A stretch of DNA of 64,000 nt from contig OZ024740.1 in the NCBI GenBank assembly GCA_964016885.1, forward strand, positions 419,616,001-419,680,000, in the 5' to 3' direction. Shown piece after piece: positions 1,942 to 61,318 of the stretch (position 1 is the first letter of the stretch; every line of letters begins with the position of its first letter). The notes beneath the pieces were generated by a model. The model saw only the letters and a program-made list of their open reading frames with translations, did no database searches and was not told the DNA's origin. The translations under genes and the position numbers were made by a program. This DNA is from Eledone cirrhosa (lineage: Eukaryota).

Positions 1942-2080
<139 letters not shown>

Positions 2081-2110
2081 AAATCAAAAGATGGTTAAAT
2101 GAGTTACATG

Positions 2111-2182
2111 TATTTTATTATGCACATTTCAAAAACAAATATCATTCATGCAATAACATTTGTGTTTTCATCAGATAAAATA
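2111..2182 (-). ncRNA. Type I hammerhead ribozyme motif (mirror copy in left arm)
   Basis: Reverse complement of 2304-2374 with core intact (tcatcag 2168-2174). Confidence 0.75.
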
Positions 2183-2303
2183 GGAAGACATGATATGAAG
2201 GTTAAAAACACTTGTGGATAGTGCAGTTTTAAATCAACATATCATATGTTGATTTAAAACTGCACTATCCACAAGTGTTTTTAACCTTCATATCATGTCT
2301 TCC

Positions 2304-2374
2304 TATTTTATCTGATGAAAACACAAATGTTATTGCATGATGATATTTGTTTTTGAAATGTGCATAATAAAATA
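2304..2374 (+). ncRNA. Type I hammerhead ribozyme motif with minimal stem III
   Basis: Stem I tattttat/ataaaata; CTGATGA 2312-2318; stem II AAACACAAATGTTATT-gcat-GATGATATTTGTTTTT; GAAA 2355-2358; TGTGCA; TA, predicted cut after 2366. Confidence 0.8.
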
Positions 2375-2537
2375 CATGGAACTCATTTAACCATCTTTTG
2401 ATTTTATATATTATGTATACTCCAGTCCTACAAACTGTAGAGTGCTTCTTATCCGATATCTACATTGCTTTATTGTACTACAATAAAACTCACCTCCTAC
2501 ATATACCTATATATATATACATATATTTATATATATA

Positions 2538-13912: not shown

Positions 13913-15032
13913 CAGGGGGTCTCAAAAAATGTATACACACTTCAACAACAACAACAAAAAAGGCATTAAAATAAATTTTGTTTTATATACACTAGCAGAA
14001 ATGTGTAGTGTGTATATTGATATTATACGCAAGTATATATACATGTAGATATGATCAAATAAAATCGTAATTGACAATATACACAGAAATTGAAAGAAGA
14101 CTGTGTTACACTCTTTTATGTAATCAGTAACGTAATCCATTATACATTAAAAAAAAGACGATATTATATGTAAACTGCATTAGGAGAAAATTAGTGACGG
14201 AAAATAAGTATGTTTATTTAAGCGATTGCCACCAGAAGTGGTGGTATATATATGGTTTCTATATATATGGTAGTTGAAGTGGTGGTGGTGGCAACGATAT
14301 ACCGGAAGTGCAACTTTGAAAAGAAGTCAATTTTAAATTATTTACTTTTACGAAATTATTTTTGTTTACGAAATTTAGTAGATAAATTATGTAATATTCA
14401 TTATTTATTCAAAGTAATCCAACTTATTTTACTAACGGGATAAAAAAAACAAAAAAACGTATGCAGTCCCGCAGACCTTCCTTTATTATAGTTTAGATTG
14501 GTGGATTGGCAGTATCGGTAGAGGGTCGGACGCCATGCTTTGCAGCATAGAGTTACGGCCCTTGCCATTCTGAGTTCAAATCCCGCCGAAGTTAACTTTG
14601 CCTTTCATCCTTACAGGGTCGATAAAATAAAGTACCAGTAATGTACTGGGTAATTGCTGGCCTTGTGCCAAAAGTAAAAACATTTAAATTATGAGGGCAG
14701 TGAATTAGCAGTATCTGTAGAGTGTCAGACACCATGCTTTGCAACATAGAGTTATGGCCCTTTACATTCTGAGTTCAAATCCTGCTATAGTTAACTTTGC
14801 CTTTCTTTTTTACGGGGTTGATAAAATAAAGCACCAGTATTGTACTGGAGTGATTGCTGGCCTTGTGCCAAAAGTAGAAACAATCATTTAAATTATGTAA
14901 ACATTTTTAGGTGTTTACATACAATTGAAATATGTCTGTAGATCATTTTATTTTGGGGAAAGGCTGTGCATTCTAATAAATATTGCCTGTACAGGTAATC
15001 AAAGTGTGTATACATTTTGGGGGGACAGCCTG
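13913..15032. mobile_element. Tc1/mariner-type MITE with nested insertions
   Basis: Imperfect TIRs cagggggtctcaaaaaatgtatacacactt / aagtgtgtatacattttggggggacagcctg in TA-rich flanks. Confidence 0.65.
14498..14886 (+). mobile_element. Two tandem tRNA-headed SINEs (Meta-domain-like family)
   Basis: Both have tggcagtatc A-box-like head, gagttcaaatcc and gcctttc...ataaaataaagtaccag core. Confidence 0.85.
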
Positions 15033-21743: not shown

Positions 21744-22455
21744 CAGGGCCAGATTTACGTATAAGCTAAACAAGCTATAGCTTGGGGGCCCCACTCTCTT
21801 GGGGCCCCGAAAAAATTGAAAAAAACGGTGTGTACATTTCCAACATATAAGTTAAAAAAAAACTAAAATAATGGTTTCTTATATAGGCACAAGGCCAGCA
21901 ATTTTTGGGAAGGAGAAAGGTGATTAAATCGACCCCAGTACATTACTGGTACTTTATTTTATCGACCCTGTAAGGATGAAAGTCAAAGTTAACCTCGGTA
22001 GGATTTGAACTCAGATTATAAAGGGCCATAACTCTATGCTGCAAAGCATGGCGTCCGACCCTCTACCGATACTGCCAATACTAAAATAATGCAATAGTTT
22101 TAAACAGTTTTCTGCCTTAATATTGAACGTTTTGCAGTTTTTATAACATTTTTTATAACATATAAAGGCCCCCATTATCTCAAATAGCTTTAGGGCGGTG
22201 GATTGGCAGTATCGGTAGAGGGTCGGACGCCATGCTTTGTAGCATAGAGTTATGGCTCTTCATGATCTGAGTTCAAATCCCGCTGAGGTTAACTTTGCCT
22301 TTCATCCTTACGGGGTCGATAAAATAAAGTACCAGTCATGCACTGAGGTCAATTTAATCGACTTTCCCCTCCCCCAAAATTGCAGGCCTTGTGCCTATAT
22401 AAGAAACCATTATCTCAAATAGCTTAGGGCCTCATCAAATCTAAATCCGGCCCTG
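21744..22455. mobile_element. hAT-type MITE containing two SINE insertions
   Basis: TIRs cagggccagattta / taaatccggccctg; 8-bp TSD cccattag/cccactag; SINEs 21872-22078(-) and 22193-22411(+) each with own TSD. Confidence 0.85.
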
Positions 22456-41592: not shown

Positions 41593-41785
41593 GGGTAGTG
41601 GATTGGCAGTATCGTTAGAGAGCCAGGTACCATGCTTTGCTGCATAAAGTTACAGTCCTTTATATTCTGAGTTCAAATCCCGCCGAGGTTAACTTTGCCT
41701 TTCATCCTTGCAGGGTTGATAAAATAAAGTACCAGTAATGCACTGGGATAGTTGCTGGCCTTGTGTCAATAGTAGAAACAATTAT
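41593..41785 (+). mobile_element. tRNA-headed SINE (Meta-domain-like family)
   Basis: Same consensus as 14498. Confidence 0.85.
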
Positions 41786-42429
41786 TACTAGATCAGGACA
41801 ATGTCCTCTCCCTTTCTCTCTTTCTCTCTCTCTCTAAACAAATAACGTTCCTTTTCTCTCTCTTTCTATATACATATCTCTTGCTTGGCTCTCCTCCTCT
41901 CTATATAAAGTGAGCATGACAGGTGGATAGACAGACAGACAGACAGCACTCTTCTTATTATATAGATTATTATTGTTATTATTATTAACTTTGCCTTTCA
42001 TCCTTACGGGGTCGATAAAATAAAGTACCAGTAATGCACTGGGTTATTGCTGGCCTTGTGCCAAAAGTAGAAACAATTATTATGTAATATCAGATTATTC
42101 AATTCATACTCAATAAAGCTTCAATGATTACATTGACATAAGTTTTAATATTTTGGATTTACAATTTCCACTTTAGATTTGATAAGGGAATCCATTAGGA
42201 GCCATGTCATCATCACCATTTTACGTCCAATCTTCCACGCTAGCATGGGTTAGACAGGTTGTCCTGTTGTGGGCAGTGTCCAGTTGGCTGACTTTGTCTT
42301 GCTCATACGGGAACTGATTCTGGCTTGATTTCTACAGCTGGATGCTCTAAGAATATGTTGTTGTCAGTCATTTTGACCCTTTAAATACACAAACATATAT
42401 ATTATTAGATTCACTTTTATTTCTGTATA

Positions 42430-47476: not shown

Positions 47477-48126
47477 GTTCTAGATATCTAAAAGTGATGT
47501 CAATGTTCCTTTATTGACAACCTCACCTGTCTAATGTATATAACATTATTTATCTCAACATTTCAAAATATTGTATCAAAGATATGGGTCACTTTTAGCA
47601 GTCATAAAAGAAATACTTTAGATTTGTAATTAATGGGTAAAGGTTTCCCTAACAACTAGGTATATAACTGCATACTAAGATGAAAAAAAAACTGTAAAAC
47701 ACAGTCTAGTCGTTCTGGGGATGAAAGAATATGGAAATAAGTTTTACCAACAACTCTAGGCAAATAACTGAGTTACCAAGATGAAAAATGGTAAAAATAA
47801 AATATTCTGAAGATAAAAGAACTAATATGGAAATTTTTATCTCAATTTTGCTTATTTCTTTTTTTTTTACGTTTCCTCTCATATGATATGTCACTTTTTA
47901 TTTGATTTTCACGTTTATATGGCAAAAATCAATAAATATATTGGTGAAACTAGAAATACTACAAGACAATTGACAACAGAAGCATGTATTGAGTTAATAA
48001 ATCTGTGTGTATTATGTTTTAATAAATACTAATGTAGTCAAATCATGCATGTTTTCAATCAGTCTTTATTCTCTATTGTTAATTTGATAGTCTAGTAATA
48101 AAGATAAAATACACAATAATAATGTG

Positions 48127-48722
48127 TAATGGGTGTATAATTCCATGATAATCTATAATGGGTGTATAATTCCATGATAATCTATAATGGGTATATAATT
48201 CCATGATAATCTATAATGGGTATATAATTCCATGATAATCTATAATGGATATATAATTCTATGATAATCTATAATGGGTGTATAATTCTATGATAATCTA
48301 TAGTGGGTATATAATTCCATGATAATCTATAATGGGTATATAATTCCATGATAATCTATAATGGGTGTATAATTCTATGATAATCTATAGTGGGTATATA
48401 ATTCCATGATAATCTATAATGGGTATATAATTCCATGATAATCTATAATGGATATATAATTCTATGATAATCTATAATGGGTGTATAATTCTATGATAAT
48501 CTATAGTGGGTATATAATTCCATGATAATCTATAATGGGTATATAATTCTATGATAATCTATAATGGGTGTATAATTCCATGATAATCTATAATGGGTGT
48601 ATAATTCTATGATAATCTATAATGGGTGTATAATTCTATGATAATCTATAGTGGGTGTATAATTCTATGATAATCTATAGTGGGTGTATAATTCTATGAT
48701 AATCTATAGTGGGTGTATAATT
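48127..48722. repeat. 29-bp minisatellite, ~20 copies
   Basis: taatgggtgtataattccatgataatcta. Confidence 0.97.
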
Positions 48723-48745
48723 CTGCTTCACTCTTACTGACTCCA

Positions 48746-48864
48746 TTAATATAGTTTATATTTTAGTTAACTGTTTAATATAGTTTATATTTTAGTTAAC
48801 TGTTTAATATAGTTTATATTTTAGTTAACTGTTTAATATAGTTTATATTTTAGTTAACTGTTTA
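48746..48864. repeat. 29-bp tandem repeat x4
   Basis: ttaatatagtttatattttagttaactgt. Confidence 0.95.
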
Positions 48865-49748
48865 TCTTATTATAACTAAGTATTGGATTCCACTCTATGA
48901 TTTGTGTGGTTTTTAAGTTAACTACTAATTGTTAACTTAAATTTAGTTAAATGATGGTTAAACAAGTATAAACCCCCCCCCCCTCCTCTCAATGTTTAAT
49001 TAATTAAAATTACACTTGTAATGAAGTCAAGCAAAAGAAACAATTCCAAAATCCAATTTAACTGGAAATTGAATGTGGGTATGTGGAGTGGGGTGGACCT
49101 GATCTTTGGCAAGTATTGTAACAACTTCAGGCATGTTTTTAACTTATTGTATTTCTTGAGCAAGTCATAGCCTTAATTCTGCTCACCAGATGTTGGAATG
49201 ATTTGATGGATTTAAAGATTACTATATATCAATATCTAGGATATTGATTTGTTGAAAGTGAGCTTGTGTTTGGAGTGGAATGCTGGATACCCACAAAAGA
49301 GATGGAAAGATGGTTAGATGGCACATATACATGACTACTGAGGAAAGTGAAGATATATCTTGGAGGGAACACAGAACAAACAAGTCCTTATATGGCAACC
49401 TGAGTCTGATTACAGACATCAGAAAGGCTAGAAGATTTGGTCTGATAGATCACATATGGTAAAGAGATCAAGTAGAGGCATTACACCAGTTATTGCCATG
49501 GGAAGCCACATAGGGTAGAACAACATGAATCTTAGAAATAATTGTTTCTACTTTTGTCACAAGGCCAGCAATTATCCCAGTGTATTACTGGTACTTTATT
49601 TTATCGACCCTGTAAGGATGAAAGGCAAAGTTAAAATCGGCGGGATTTGAACTCAGAATGGCAAGGGCTGTGAGTTCAAATCCCGCTGTGAACTCATGGA
49701 AGCCATGCTGGATAGGGACAAATGGAGAAGTATAATTATCAACATTTT

Positions 49749-50935: not shown

Positions 50936-51316
50936 TTAACATTTTAACATTTACATTACTCTCTATCTACTATTATATTTTCATCGTAAGGGCGTGGATT
51001 GGCAGTATCGGTAGAGGGTCGGGCGCCATGCTTTGAAGCATAGAGTTACCTCCCTTTATGATCTGAGTTCAAATCCCGCCGAGGTTAACTTTGCCTTTCA
51101 TCCTTACGGGGTCGATAAAATAAAGTACCAGTAATGCACTGGGATAATTGCTGGCCTGGTGCCAAAAGTAGAAACAATTATATTTTCATCGTAAAGGCTT
51201 TATCTCACATAATATCGAATCTATGAGATTTTGATATTATCTATTTTTTTTTAGAACAATACCTTAACATCAGTATGAGTGACCGGTTACAGCTGGTTTA
51301 AATGCTAAAGGGTTAA
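50936..51316. mobile_element. TTAA MITE with SINE insertion (50990-51180)
   Basis: TSD attatattttcatcgtaa on both sides of the SINE; ends aaagggttaa. Confidence 0.8.
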
Positions 51317-53280: not shown

Positions 53281-54284
53281 GTAGAAATGTTGATACAATA
53301 CTTGGTGATAGGAAGGGCATCCAACTTTAGAAATGTTGCCAAACAAAGGGTTAGAAGGACCCTCAGTTATGTCAAAGACATGATAACCCCTCAACTCAGT
53401 GGAACGTAAGACCATACATAAGTGAGAAACAGATCCCTGTCAGTGGCTCTGCTTCAGTACCAATTTGGTCTATGTGAACCTGTCCAACCTTTGCCAGCAG
53501 GGAAAATGGACGTTAAAACAATGATGATGATGTATACTACTAACAGAGCATCATGCAATTATAATGTTTTACTGTTTATAGTAATGTTTATATCAAATTA
53601 CTGGTAGGTGACCCAAACCACCAACATTTCAGTATCTTTAAGTATCTTTATAAGGAACACAATACAACATTACTTCTGTCTATTTACCATATAATGGTGA
53701 TGATGATGAATTATGAATGTAGAAGATGTATTGCAACTAATATCCTGATATGTAAACAGTAGTGTAGAGATAAGAGATATATCGATATCAACTAATAACA
53801 GTAATTGAGATAAAGTTACACAGGAAATCCCAATGGAAGGAAGCCACAGTGGAGGTAGACCAAGAGAGACCTGGGCAGAGGTGGTAAGAGCTGACCTCGA
53901 GTCGCTGAGACTCACAGAGGAAATGATGAAGAAACACAGCAAGTAGAGAGATGCTGTGCTGAGAAGACATCCAACCCATGCAAGCATGGAAAAACGGACG
54001 TGATGATGATGATGAATTATGCACCATTCATGTAGATATTTCCCAAGAATCTAACTACATGGGATGCTAAAAAGAAAGACCAGTACATACTTCAGCAATA
54101 CCAAATATAAAGATGGAATCTATAGAAAATTTGTAAAAGGGTCCATTGTATAGATGGGAGTGAGAGGAAATGTCTTAATTGAAGTCATTGTAGATTTAGC
54201 CTCACCAAAGACACGGAAATAAAGTAGAATCAGGTTTCTGTGACTGTGAAACAGTGTTAACGAAGTGTATTAACCATATAAACT

Positions 54285-56548: not shown

Positions 56549-58846
56549 ATAATTAACCCCTACATTGTTTTATAATCTTTTACTGACAAGTAAACAGTTG
56601 AACTTGGATCATTGTTATAATGTCTTATTTGTTATTTCATTGGACTAAATTCAATCTTAATAAAATAAGTACTGGTAAGATTTTAGGTTAATTAAATCAA
56701 TTATAGTTTTTATAAGATTTATTCTAGTCAAAAAACTCCTTGTCATTTTAATGTTCATTTTGTTGTGAAGCATTAATTAATTTCTAAATCAGAATGATAA
56801 TCTTATTTCATTTGATATCAGTTTTGACTAGTTTCCAGTTATTTTAGTTCAGCTTCCATTAAGAAAAAATAATATATTTAAAAACTATTGGCACAGAATT
56901 GATTAAATCTAGTATTACATGCATTGAAAGACGACACAAATCTGAGTTAGTTGCATTTTTTGAGAAATCTTTGATCAATAAAATAGAAATAAATAAAAAA
57001 TGTTGATGTATATGAAATGGAACACATGAAAGAAATGTAGTTTCCAATTTTCTAAGCAATATTTTGAGATACTGACATATCTCAGATATTTGTGTTGTGT
57101 GCCAATTGTCCCTGAAAGTTGGTTCAATATTTTACATTAGTCTAGTACTTGCAGTCCACATTTTTAACTTGTATCAAAACAGAAAATAATAAATATGTTA
57201 CTATATCTCCAAGGTAATTGCTTTAAGTTGTTTGGGTGAAACAGTTGTAAAGATTGCTATAGTTAAGTGCTCTGCTAACTCCTTTTCAATGTTCAACTTA
57301 TTATTTTATGTCTATATCAAACATTCCCATTTTTATTTGCACACACTTTGTCTTATTTCTCTCAAATAATCCAAATAACAAATGAAATCCAATAATAGAC
57401 AAACCAACACGAAATGCTTGATTAACACTGTTTCACAGTCACAGAAACCTGATTCTACTTTATTTCCGTGTCTTTGGTGAGGCTAAATCTACAATGACTT
57501 CAATTAAGACATTTCCTCTCACTCCCATCTATACAATGGACCCTTTTACAAATTTTCTACAGATTCCATCTTTATATTTGGTATTGCTGAAGTATGTACT
57601 GGTCTTTCTTTTTAGCATCCCATGTAGTTAGATTCTTGGGAAATATCTACATGAATGGTGCATAATTCATCATCATCATCACGTCTGTTTTTCCATGCTT
57701 GCATGGGTTGGATGTCTTCTCAGCACAGCATCTCTCTACTTGCTGTGTTTCTTCATCATTTCCTCTGTGAGTCTCAGAGATTCGAGGTCAGCTCTTACCA
57801 CCTCTGCCCAGGTCTCTCTTGGTCTACCTCCACTGTGGCTTCCTTCCATTGGGATTTCCTGTGTAACTTTATCTCAATTACTGTTATTAGTTGATATCGA
57901 TATATCTCTTATCTCTACACTACTGTTTACATATCAGGATATTAGTGGCAACACATCTTCTACATTCACACATTCTAAACTACATTCAATAAAATATTAT
58001 CTGGTTAATAATAATCTCCTACCTATGCTAACATGGAAGATGGATGTTAAATGATGATGGTAGTAGTCAAAACTTCCCAAACAATGATCTCCACTCTTCT
58101 CAATTTGCTTATTCTACACTATCCTTACTTAAAAGTATTTCATTCCCTTATTTCTTGTGCTCTGCAATCTCTCACTTTCCAGACTAAATATAAAAAAAAA
58201 CTTGATGAATTGTTTCTTAAAAATTCAATTATCTAGGACTTTTTCTCTCTGATTATGTCTTTCATTTCAGTACTTGGAACAATTTATCTCTCAACCAAGG
58301 GGACTAACCGTATATACTTGAATATAAACTGATACAAATATAAGCTGACCCCTATTTTATGTCTGAGAAATGGGCAAAAATCCAAACCTTATTTACATAT
58401 AATTTGAAGTTGCTGGAAAGCAATTTTTTTGGTCACATATTCCTCGGCTTTTATTCAAGTATTTAGGTCTACAGCTATGGTCACTGTCACTTGTCATCAA
58501 ACTAGAATATACAAATACATATACTATGACTGCAAAAGTGTATTGTTGTTGTTGCTGCTATTTAGCTGTATATCAATCCTGATTAAAACCACTACAGCCA
58601 TGAACATCTAATGTGTCCTTCATTTTTTAACATGGAAGGATGGAATTTGAGGTGGTAGGGCTGTTATTTCTTTCAACTTAAACAACCCCATAGAGGGTAA
58701 CTTGATGTGTCCTTCATTTTTTTAACATTGAAGGGTGGAATTTGAGGTGGTGGGGCTATTATTTCTATCAACTTTAACAACCCCATAACTTGTTGGCTCA
58801 GTAGAAGTGTTTTGAATGTGAAATGAATCCCCTGGTGTATTCATTT

Positions 58847-58895
<49 letters not shown>

Positions 58896-58953
58896 TATAT
58901 ATATATATACAATGATATTAAATAAATGGAAACTATATTTATAAAACCATATT

Positions 58954-59018
58954 TATTTTATTATATATATTTCAAGGGCAACCAAGACAACATTGGTACA
59001 CTTTCATCAGATAAAATA
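58954..59018 (-). ncRNA. Type I hammerhead ribozyme motif (mirror copy)
   Basis: Reverse complement of 59157-59221 with core intact (tcatcag 59004-59010). Confidence 0.75.
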
Positions 59019-59156
59019 CAAAGTTTGTTTTATAAATAGAGACATACCCATGAAAATCAAACCTTATCGGTTGGAAATCATACCTTATCAGTTGGAAATT
59101 CCAACCAATAAGGTATGATTTTCATGGGTATGTCTCTATTTATAAAACAAACTTTG

Positions 59157-59221
59157 TATTTTATCTGATGAAAGCGTACCAATGTTGTCTTGGTTGCCCT
59201 TGAAATATATATAATAAAATA
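59157..59221 (+). ncRNA. Type I hammerhead ribozyme motif
   Basis: tattttat CTGATGA aagcgtaccaa-tgttgtc-ttggttgccctt GAAA TATATA TA ataaaata; predicted cut after 59213. Confidence 0.8.
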
Positions 59222-61318
59222 AATATGATTTTATAAATATAGTTTCCATTTATTTAATATCATTGAATCCAGTAATATGTTGAGTGCTCTAAATCAGGTA
59301 TAAACATTTGTATTTGTCAGACTTCCAACAAATTAAATACCACTTCTACTTATATATATATATATGGACCTGTAACTCATGCGGGAGTTCATCATTTTTA
59401 TGGCCAGGTCATTTGGATGTACTTACTGTTAAATTAGTTACATCAAATATTGCTTATGATAAAGAAATGTTATGTAAAGAAAAATTGAGAATATGTTGGT
59501 AGATTGTGGTTGTTAGTGTTATATCACTAAAATAGAGCTGTGACTAAAAGCATTCTAGCTAAAACCAGACATTCTTTAATAATTCTAACTAAAACCATTT
59601 ATTCTGTGATCATAAATTGAAGGTATAGGTAAACCAGACATTCCTTAATAATAATTTAGTGTTAACATATTTAATGTAATTATTTAGTGTTAACATATTT
59701 AACGTAATTATTTAGTGTTAACATATTTAATGTAATTATTCAGTAAAAAAAAGTATTACTAATATTGTTTCTTCCTCACTGCATACTTATCCCTAGTTAG
59801 TCTTTTGATGTCCCCTGCATTTATTATATGTTAGCATTATTAACACACCCAGTGGTTGGTGGTAGGAAGGGCATCCAGTCATAGAAATCTTGCCAAGCAA
59901 AAGGGCTTGGAGGACCCTCAGTTGTGTCAAAGACATGACAACCTCTCCTGTGTGCTTAATGGAGTGTCGACTGTACATAGGCCAGAGATCTGTGTCTCAC
60001 TTTATCTGGGAGACCAGTGGCTCTGCTTCAGTACTGACTTGATTTATGTCGACCCATCCAACCCTTACTAGAAGGGAAAGTGGGCATTAAAACAACAATG
60101 ATGATGATGATGATGATATTAACATAGATGTTTTTCATGTAGCTGTCTCAGTAATTTATGCTTTAAACAACAAATTTATATAACCAGAAGCCATGATTTA
60201 TGATAGAAACTATTAGTGAAATGAGTTTGTAAACTCATCTAAATCATATTAGACAACATGGTTAAAAATATATGCTGATAGTAGTATTTCAACAACAGTT
60301 GATGCAGAAGTCTTGTTTTCACTGTACATTCACTGTTTAATATAAAACTTACTGATCACTTGTAAAAGCATAAAAGTAATTAAAGACTAAATTATTTATA
60401 CTAACAAAATGTCAAGCTTGGTGAATATGAAGTAAATTATATATAATTTCATGCGAGACGTATTTGATGAAAGATCTTGTGGCTACAAATAAAATGAAAT
60501 ATTAACATAACACGAGTTTTTCAAATGATTGACTTAAAAGGGTAATATTCAACATCAAACTGCCAATTGTTTCATGAAACAGTTGAATCTCCAGACTGTT
60601 CTGTTTATTTTCTACTTTATATTTGTTGAAGCTGACATTAAACAGTTTGTCTGATTTGCAACTATTCAAAGAGCAATTTATATATTTTGTTTGTTTGTTA
60701 AGTAATTTGTCTGCTACAGTTGTTGATCTCATGGCCATATTTGAATGTATTAATCTGTCACTCCAACCATTTATTTCATATCTCCTTCCATATACTAGTT
60801 ATTCTAAATACAATACCAAACCAGCATGTTGTATTGGCAGAATCATTAGAGCATCACATAATATTCCTTCAAGTATTTATTTATAGATCTTTACATTCTG
60901 AGTTCAAATCCTTCTTGGGTGAACTTCACCTTTCATGCTTCTGGTATTAATAAAGTACTGGAATCGATTTATATTTCAGTAATGTCTCTTAGATATGAAT
61001 AGAATTTCGAAGGTCATGAAGGTGTGATGCTAGTGTTGTGAAATCTTGCATGTATTAATTTCAACTCTTCTTATTAACTGCATTGTTTCTTAATTTAAAT
61101 TGGAAACTTTTGAAATGGGTGGTTTTAATATCATAGAATCAGAGTTGGTTTTGGCCAGGTTAGTAACAAAAGGGTTAAATATCAACATGTTTCATGAGCA
61201 TGAACTACGAAGATCCTTACATTTGATAATCCCCTTCAGTTGATATTAATAGTCGTTTAGGTCAGCCAGATCTATATGTAGGAAGTAATTCTAACAACTA
61301 GGTACAATATGAAAGATA

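Follow-up and report, generated by a model that had tools for sequence, protein, structure and literature searches.

The window analysed here is a 64,000-nt stretch of the Eledone cirrhosa genome (assembly GCA_964016885.1, contig OZ024740.1, positions 419,616,001-419,680,000, forward strand), and coordinates without a locus prefix refer to it. At 58910..59350 the window carries an inverted repeat, with arms at 58907-59076 and 59099-59268 that agree at all but 5 of 170 positions (97% identity). Runs of (TA)n lie on both sides, and are annotated without strand as the left (58850..58909) and right (59351..59365) target microsatellite. The left arm (58910..59098, minus strand) is an inverted pLTR copy that includes the junction and the duplication at it, and its 3' end is a site here termed S1, about +100 from the hammerhead position C3. 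The right arm (59099..59265, plus strand) is a sense pLTR copy that starts about 66 nt upstream of C3. The unit is asymmetric: an 85-nt tail (59266..59350, plus strand) follows the right arm only, corresponding to the PLE tail between S1 and a second site, S2, with 7 nt missing near the tail start in this copy. A first-pass annotation of this DNA had reported a 21-bp duplication beside the hairpin tip, and this is indeed present at the junction as a tandem duplication (59055..59096, plus strand; 59055-59075 and 59076-59096, 19/21 identical) that is absent from all other tips displayed for the same family.

Each arm contains a minimal type I hammerhead motif. The left-arm motif (58954..59018, minus strand) was located by descriptor scan, and the right-arm motif (59157..59221, plus strand) has C3 at 59165, GAAA at 59202-59205, the stem III sequence TATATA at 59206-59211 and a predicted cut after 59213 on the plus strand. 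A comparison element at 2071..2500 (plus strand) has the same architecture, as the first-pass annotation had stated. In contigs from four sequencing runs, the type of which is unrecorded, the summed depth over 58910..59350 was very high with identical end points, and no single piece among these contigs spanned the element end to end. As an object, the element is ordinary: it is one of many non-coding PLE stumps, and inverted pLTRs, one-sided tails and opposite-strand hammerhead pairs have all been published already.

Several other repeats were observed in the window. A 552-bp inverted repeat (53714-54265 and 57417-57968) has arms that are 99% complementary and separated by 3.15 kb; it encloses no convincing ORF. 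A high-copy SINE-like repeat is found at 14501-14887, 22198-22385, 41598-42079, 50994-51181 and other positions, and tandem arrays occur from 7184 onward (unit 26-27 nt), from 46951 onward (unit 48 nt) and at 47971-48869 (unit 29 nt). No PLE ORF remnant was found within the 64 kb.

Parent elements and clade

The element at 58910..59350 defines family B, and that at 2071..2500 defines family A. Searches of the genome from which the window comes returned 1,269 first-look candidates for the 58910..59350 arm and 1,215 for the 2071..2500 element; scoring covered 40 candidates from each set, among which the full-length matches were mostly 92-99% identical. Exact matches genome-wide numbered 1,079 for a family B 24-mer and 5,480 for a family A anchor. 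Copies of both families follow a common plan, comprising (TA)n, an inverted arm, a variable junction, a sense arm, a tail of about 90 nt and (TA)n again, and 27 of 28 two-ended copies of the sister family have at least four TA units on both sides. Other short palindromic repeats in (TA)n, by eye unrelated to family B, were seen in the flanks of loci L028, L020 and L003.

In the longer family B copies, an AT-rich UTR and then an ORF are reached upstream of the arm. At loci L120 and L121 the order is pLTR-tail-ORF-UTR-pLTR, with the same arm and tail as at 58910..59350, and in full-length copies about 50 nt separate the PLE tail from the ORF downstream of it. Open stretches of 699 aa (L101) and 689 aa (L115) contain RT and endonuclease-type motifs. 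The motifs of the parent ORF include DKT, RWC/RWR, Y[R/H]DD and CxCx5C, with CxxCxxE and CxH in other copies; by eye, YxDD and a GIY-YIG-type pattern (VVY..YVG..R..E..N) can also be recognised. For instance, SDKTNNLY, in which DKG is changed to DKT, occurs in L101, L104, L105, L110, L112, L113 and L115. The RW motif reads RLRWC in L115 and RLRWR in L118, and RW[KRC] was matched by 15 of the 24 long proteins scored. The Hydra clade has been defined by DKT, an RWK N-terminal motif, CxCx5C, CxxC/CxH around E and N, and a (TA)n preference (PMC8557442), and the DKT, the CxCx5C linker, the CxxC and CxH flanking E and N and the (TA)n targets found here match that definition. The supplement of the same paper includes an octopus Hydra family and protein (Hydra-1_Obim).

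A protein search with the parent ORF gave 38 homologues at 30-46% identity, many of which carry a precomputed assignment to PF26215. Pfam searches with pieces of the parent ORF and with three homologues returned no families, and a PDB sequence search with the parent ORF returned no matches. Additionally, a hammerhead motif lies inside the pLTR of the parent element, and 5' truncation, partial tandem or inverted copies and a tail at one end are all present, as is characteristic of EN+ PLEs.

The parent ORFs of families A and B are 47-48% identical over 483-541 aligned residues. Therefore, the elements at 58910..59350 and 2071..2500 belong to sister PLE families, and the former is not the second, diverged copy of the 2.1-kb element that it had been taken for. 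The element at 58910..59350 is a 5'-truncated, head-to-head pLTR insertion of a Hydra-clade PLE into (TA)n, the clade being assigned putatively, from ORF motifs and by-eye likeness rather than from a tree. PLE-type ORF fragments of another kind were seen at L093:652-1852; these have RT thumb-like, zinc finger and GIY-YIG-like parts ending GLN and appear by eye unlike the Hydra family.

Arm ends and the formation of the mirror image

Arm ends were recorded in 80 of 84 family B loci from the first 100 of 1,079 matches, all on one contig, and in the first 60 family A loci of the matches listed, on the same single contig. Arm 3' ends fall at two sites, S1 and S2 (the latter at about +190), with TA repeats after each. 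Among the 80 family B loci, 52 are two-armed; 14 of these have at least one end off both sites, while 38 have both ends on a site, and 37 of the 38 combine S1 with S2. The 60 family A loci comprise 46 S1+S2 copies (46/46 classifiable), none with S1/S1 or S2/S2, one that is unclear and 13 that are single-armed. Across both families, 83 of 84 classifiable two-armed copies have one S1 arm and one S2 arm.

The opposite ends of the arms show a sharp 5' stop, at about -80 in family B and -68 in family A. In family B, 23 of 132 arm starts lie at -84..-76 and 4 of 132 at -200..-85. By eye, 1 of 81 anchor-bearing family A arms continues into parent sequence, as do 18 of the first 100 of 332 family B anchors. 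Some S2 arms are much shorter: the start lies at or beyond +99 in 10 of 53 family B S2 arms, and at +85..+101, at S1, in 7 of the 13 truncated S2 arms of family A (p=2.5e-5 versus uniform). Such arms therefore do not overlap with their partner arm, and could not be produced by fold-back copying without an extra deletion. The junctions between arms are variable, with microhomology and insertions, and family B tips differ between copies.

The first-pass annotation had attributed the element to fold-back, but the distribution of arm ends favours the head-to-head joining of two cDNAs. The presence of S1 and S2 in each copy, the fixed 5' stop and the S2 arms that stop at S1 together favour twin priming over fold-back self-priming. 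Our preferred reading, to which a probability of about 0.6 is given, is thus that 58910..59350 is a short head-to-head PLE pLTR insertion into (TA)n, likely made by two cDNAs at two fixed internal sites. The PLE protein would cut the (TA)n target and leave two broken ends, and both would be primed, presumably one at S1 and the other at S2, and probably on the same RNA. Each cDNA would then either extend as far as the RNA 5' end, which is probably a start site within the pLTR, or terminate before it. Microhomology end-joining would connect the two head to head, and is likely also the source of the 21-bp duplication. The hammerhead would be a passenger carried from the pLTR. In PMC11167929, a PLE protein is described as extending both target strands in vitro with starts at two internal sites bounding the tail, and the PLE hammerhead as protein-assisted and dispensable for in vitro insertion. 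An internal promoter has been described in the Penelope pLTR (PMC2377424).

The base preceding the 5' stop was also considered, as a capped end would be recognisable by an untemplated G (PMC9341517). A G is found at this position in 24 of 81 family A arms, but the bases left unexplained after a strict test are down to 3 G, 8 C and 3 A; the strict test in family B leaves 2 G and 3 C. A cap-derived G is therefore a weak signal and suggestive only. No strong hairpin at the 5' stop was obvious in the two folds run. Regarding the surrounding sequence, a donor-like G|GTATGT upstream of the hammerhead (window 59128-59133) is kept in six of eight subfamily examples, the other two having GTGTTT, and an acceptor-like CAG is found after S1 (window 59269-59272) in five of the six examples reaching that far. 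These could delimit a candidate 5' UTR intron, which would include the hammerhead and S1.

A more general and more tentative proposal, judged to fall somewhat short of an even chance, is that PLEs integrate by obligatory two-ended priming on the same unspliced RNA, with S2 used at one end and S1 at the other. Where priming occurs in the 5' pLTR, both cDNAs would run off the capped 5' end, similar to retroviral strong-stop DNA, and would be joined head to head. If true, this alone would explain inverted pLTRs, one-sided tails and thousands of short palindromes; families A and B would be the natural footprint of two-ended priming, and the hammerhead might lie within a 5' UTR intron.

Several considerations limit twin priming. 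The two arms carry the same source variant at a G/A site (+31) in 35 of 36 elements, a concordance that fits fold-back or later homogenisation equally well; divergence is 2.9% within elements and 3.9% between them. AT microhomology may have exaggerated the pile-up of arm starts at S1, the short arms could alternatively reflect a deletion on one side following insertion, and unequal ends could arise from staggered endonuclease cutting of a self-primed intermediate. The last of these belongs to the strongest alternative, which keeps the same PLE origin and is regarded as unlikely: one cDNA (or an antisense template) would self-prime and fold back, and staggered endonuclease cuts would leave the one-sided tail. 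Self-priming has been put forward in PMC3846280 to explain head-to-head PLE palindromes, and EN-mediated resolution is the published origin of the tail (PMC8557442). The source variants common to both arms are consistent with self-priming, as is the location of the family A 5' stop within a small palindrome. However, the tail-only S2 arms would need the extra deletion noted above, and the variable junctions, with their microhomology and insertions, and the extension of both target strands in vitro (PMC11167929) also speak against self-priming.

It is considerably less probable that the palindrome is itself a non-autonomous SINE- or retrozyme-like unit, transcribed and amplified whole by the PLE protein. 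The same tip does occur in many family A copies, short copies are more numerous than long ones, and non-autonomous PLE derivatives are known (PMC8557442; bioRxiv 10.64898/2026.07.22.740005). However, a shared tip is expected anyway if both arms run to one fixed 5' end, family B tips vary from copy to copy, and nine tips in an unbiased family A sample represent seven insert types. Additionally, retrozymes consist of head-to-tail tandem hammerhead units, whereas among the first 100 of the 1,079 family B matches listed there were 15 divergent pairs within 10 kb, one convergent pair and no direct pairs.

The less ordinary part of these families is the occurrence of one S1 and one S2 arm per copy, the fixed 5' stop and the S2 arms stopping at S1. 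A literature search, with many subscription papers outside its reach, found no statement of a one-S1/one-S2 rule or of twin priming for PLEs. The value of 58910..59350 is statistical, in that it leads to young, high-copy families with fixed coordinates for S1, S2 and the 5' stop. The near-absolute one-S1/one-S2 rule bears on how PLEs form inverted ends and tails, for which self-priming was proposed in 2013 (PMC3846280) and two internal start sites were described in vitro in 2024 (PMC11167929).

Hammerhead motifs and their conservation

A type I descriptor scan of both strands of the 64 kb identified four motifs, with the sense C3 at +59165, -59010, +2312 and -2174, while shuffled windows (n=100) contained a mean of 0.01 and a maximum of 1. 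An Rfam scan gave no hits at the gathering threshold for 58910..59350. The family B motif consists of stem I (TATTTTAT/ATAAAATA), CUGAUGA, a stem II with AAG/CTT and ACCAA/TTGGT, GAAA, TATATA and UA, so that the CUGANGA/GAAA/UH core with stems I-III of a minimal type I hammerhead is present. Descriptor scan and sequence thus bear out two features of the first-pass annotation, namely a minimal PLE-type hammerhead with the palindromic stem III TATATA and a stem II that still pairs despite its different sequence.

The designation as a double hammerhead was not upheld. The two motifs of each window element sit on opposite strands, such that each strand has one sense and one antisense copy; therefore, no single RNA has two sense hammerheads, and a dimeric hammerhead in cis, with two sense motifs on one RNA, was not found. 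The 58910..59350 region folds into one predicted hairpin of -244 kcal/mol, and in the both-arm RNA hammerhead stems I and II have a predicted pairing of 0.000. When a transcript runs through both arms, the 170-bp duplex is predicted to bury the hammerhead. For the isolated motif, predicted pairing is about 0.10 for stem I and 0.76-0.98 for the five upper stem II pairs, and the 8-nt AU palindrome duplex is predicted at only -3.2 kcal/mol. Hammerhead cleavage was rejected as the origin of the arm ends, given that 2 of 132 5' ends and 3 of 132 3' ends lie at the cut site.

Conservation was compared at two levels. Ten subfamily representatives vary in stem II but retain the core and stem I, and their stem III stays self-complementary. 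In this set 95.9% of cells are paired, seven pairs are changed on both sides and the pairing or covariation score was reached by 0/500 shuffles, although the descriptor used to choose these representatives already required the core, stem I and the first stem III pair, such that stem II and the inner palindrome provide the only free evidence. Two of 12 subfamily clusters, one unrelated-looking and one a deleted form, were left out of the covariation set. A C that is invariant in the ten representatives is a T at 59000 in the minus-strand motif of 58910..59350. Among 136 family B elements, for which 80 of the input loci had been selected with a pattern that overlaps the core in part, variants shared by at least five elements numbered 0 in 31 core and stem I sites, 6 in stem II, 5 upstream and 5 downstream. 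In 28 arms picked on upstream sequence only, the core and stem I differ at 12 of 868 sites versus 63 of 2658 in the flanks (p=0.10).

The first-pass annotation had argued that conserved structure with diverged sequence implies selection on ribozyme function. The first part holds across families, but selection on this particular element does not follow; the core and stem I are kept across subfamily representatives, and copies picked regardless of the hammerhead show no significant excess conservation there. Taken together, the result in arms picked on upstream sequence and the conserved core across subfamilies place the hammerhead constraint best in the source lineage, with no significant sign of it among dispersed copies like 58910..59350. 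That a functional fold-back double hammerhead was selected at 58910..59350 and cleaves as a dimer is thus highly improbable: the motif is intact on both arms, with a palindromic stem III and a core kept across subfamilies, and weak dimer cleavage is described for minimal PLE hammerheads (PMC4209133), but the opposite strands, the single hairpin, the weak palindrome duplex, the non-significant excess conservation among dispersed copies and the lack of arm-end clustering at the cut site all stand against it. Opposite-strand hammerhead pairs should not be called double ribozymes.

The genome holds at least eight more subfamilies in which this hammerhead type is combined with a different stem II (among them L234:2583-2647, L173:4939-5008, L174:2256-2310, L207:3989-4062, L037:1119-1184 and L208:2129-2194). 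Loci L162, L065, L156 and L056 carry hammerhead families of other type, with, for example, a CTAG, GAAC or CCACTGG helix III.

Comparison with known systems

In L1 twin priming, the position of the second site varies and the arms are non-overlapping. The Poseidon PAc system in vitro (Frangieh et al. 2024, PMC11167929) shares with the families studied here two internal RT starts bounding the tail, extension of both target strands and an AT-rich target, whereas inverted arms and a fixed 5' stop are not addressed in the available text of that study. Non-LTR retrozymes (PMC7229834; bioRxiv 10.64898/2026.07.22.740005) are similarly short and non-coding, with a type I hammerhead, and derive from PLE pLTRs; however, they are described as head-to-tail tandem arrays, in contrast to the head-to-head or single copies found here.

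The hammerhead resembles the minimal hammerheads of metazoan PLEs (Cervera and de la Pena 2014, PMC4209133) in being type I with a long stem II and a small palindromic helix III. In comparison to those, the putative motif here has 8 A-U pairs in stem I, and its stem II has 3 pairs followed by a conserved unpaired C. The same report describes dual minimal hammerheads on opposite strands, separated by about 100-700 bp and probably derived from truncated PLEs.

Hydra-clade C-terminal EN+ PLEs (Craig et al. 2021, PMC8557442; Hydra-1_Obim and Hydra-1_Amil) have in common with the parent elements DKT, an RW-type motif, CxCx5C and CxxC/CxH around E and N, as well as (TA)n targets, a hammerhead in the pLTR, inverted 5'-truncated copies and a tail. 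By eye, the Hydra-1_Obim protein is a clear homologue of the parent ORF with a different sequence. Relative to the clade as described, the elements here have RWC/RWR for RWK, a unit of about 3.2 kb, a 3' UTR that is long and AT-rich, and a tail of about 90 nt where 30-40 nt are described. Finally, the inverted-pLTR Penelope elements of Adineta vaga and Drosophila virilis (PMC3846280, PMC2377424) share head-to-head pLTRs, a junction palindrome, a one-sided tail and an internal promoter. Self-priming is the published explanation there, whereas two priming events are favoured for the E. cirrhosa families, most copies of which are without an ORF.
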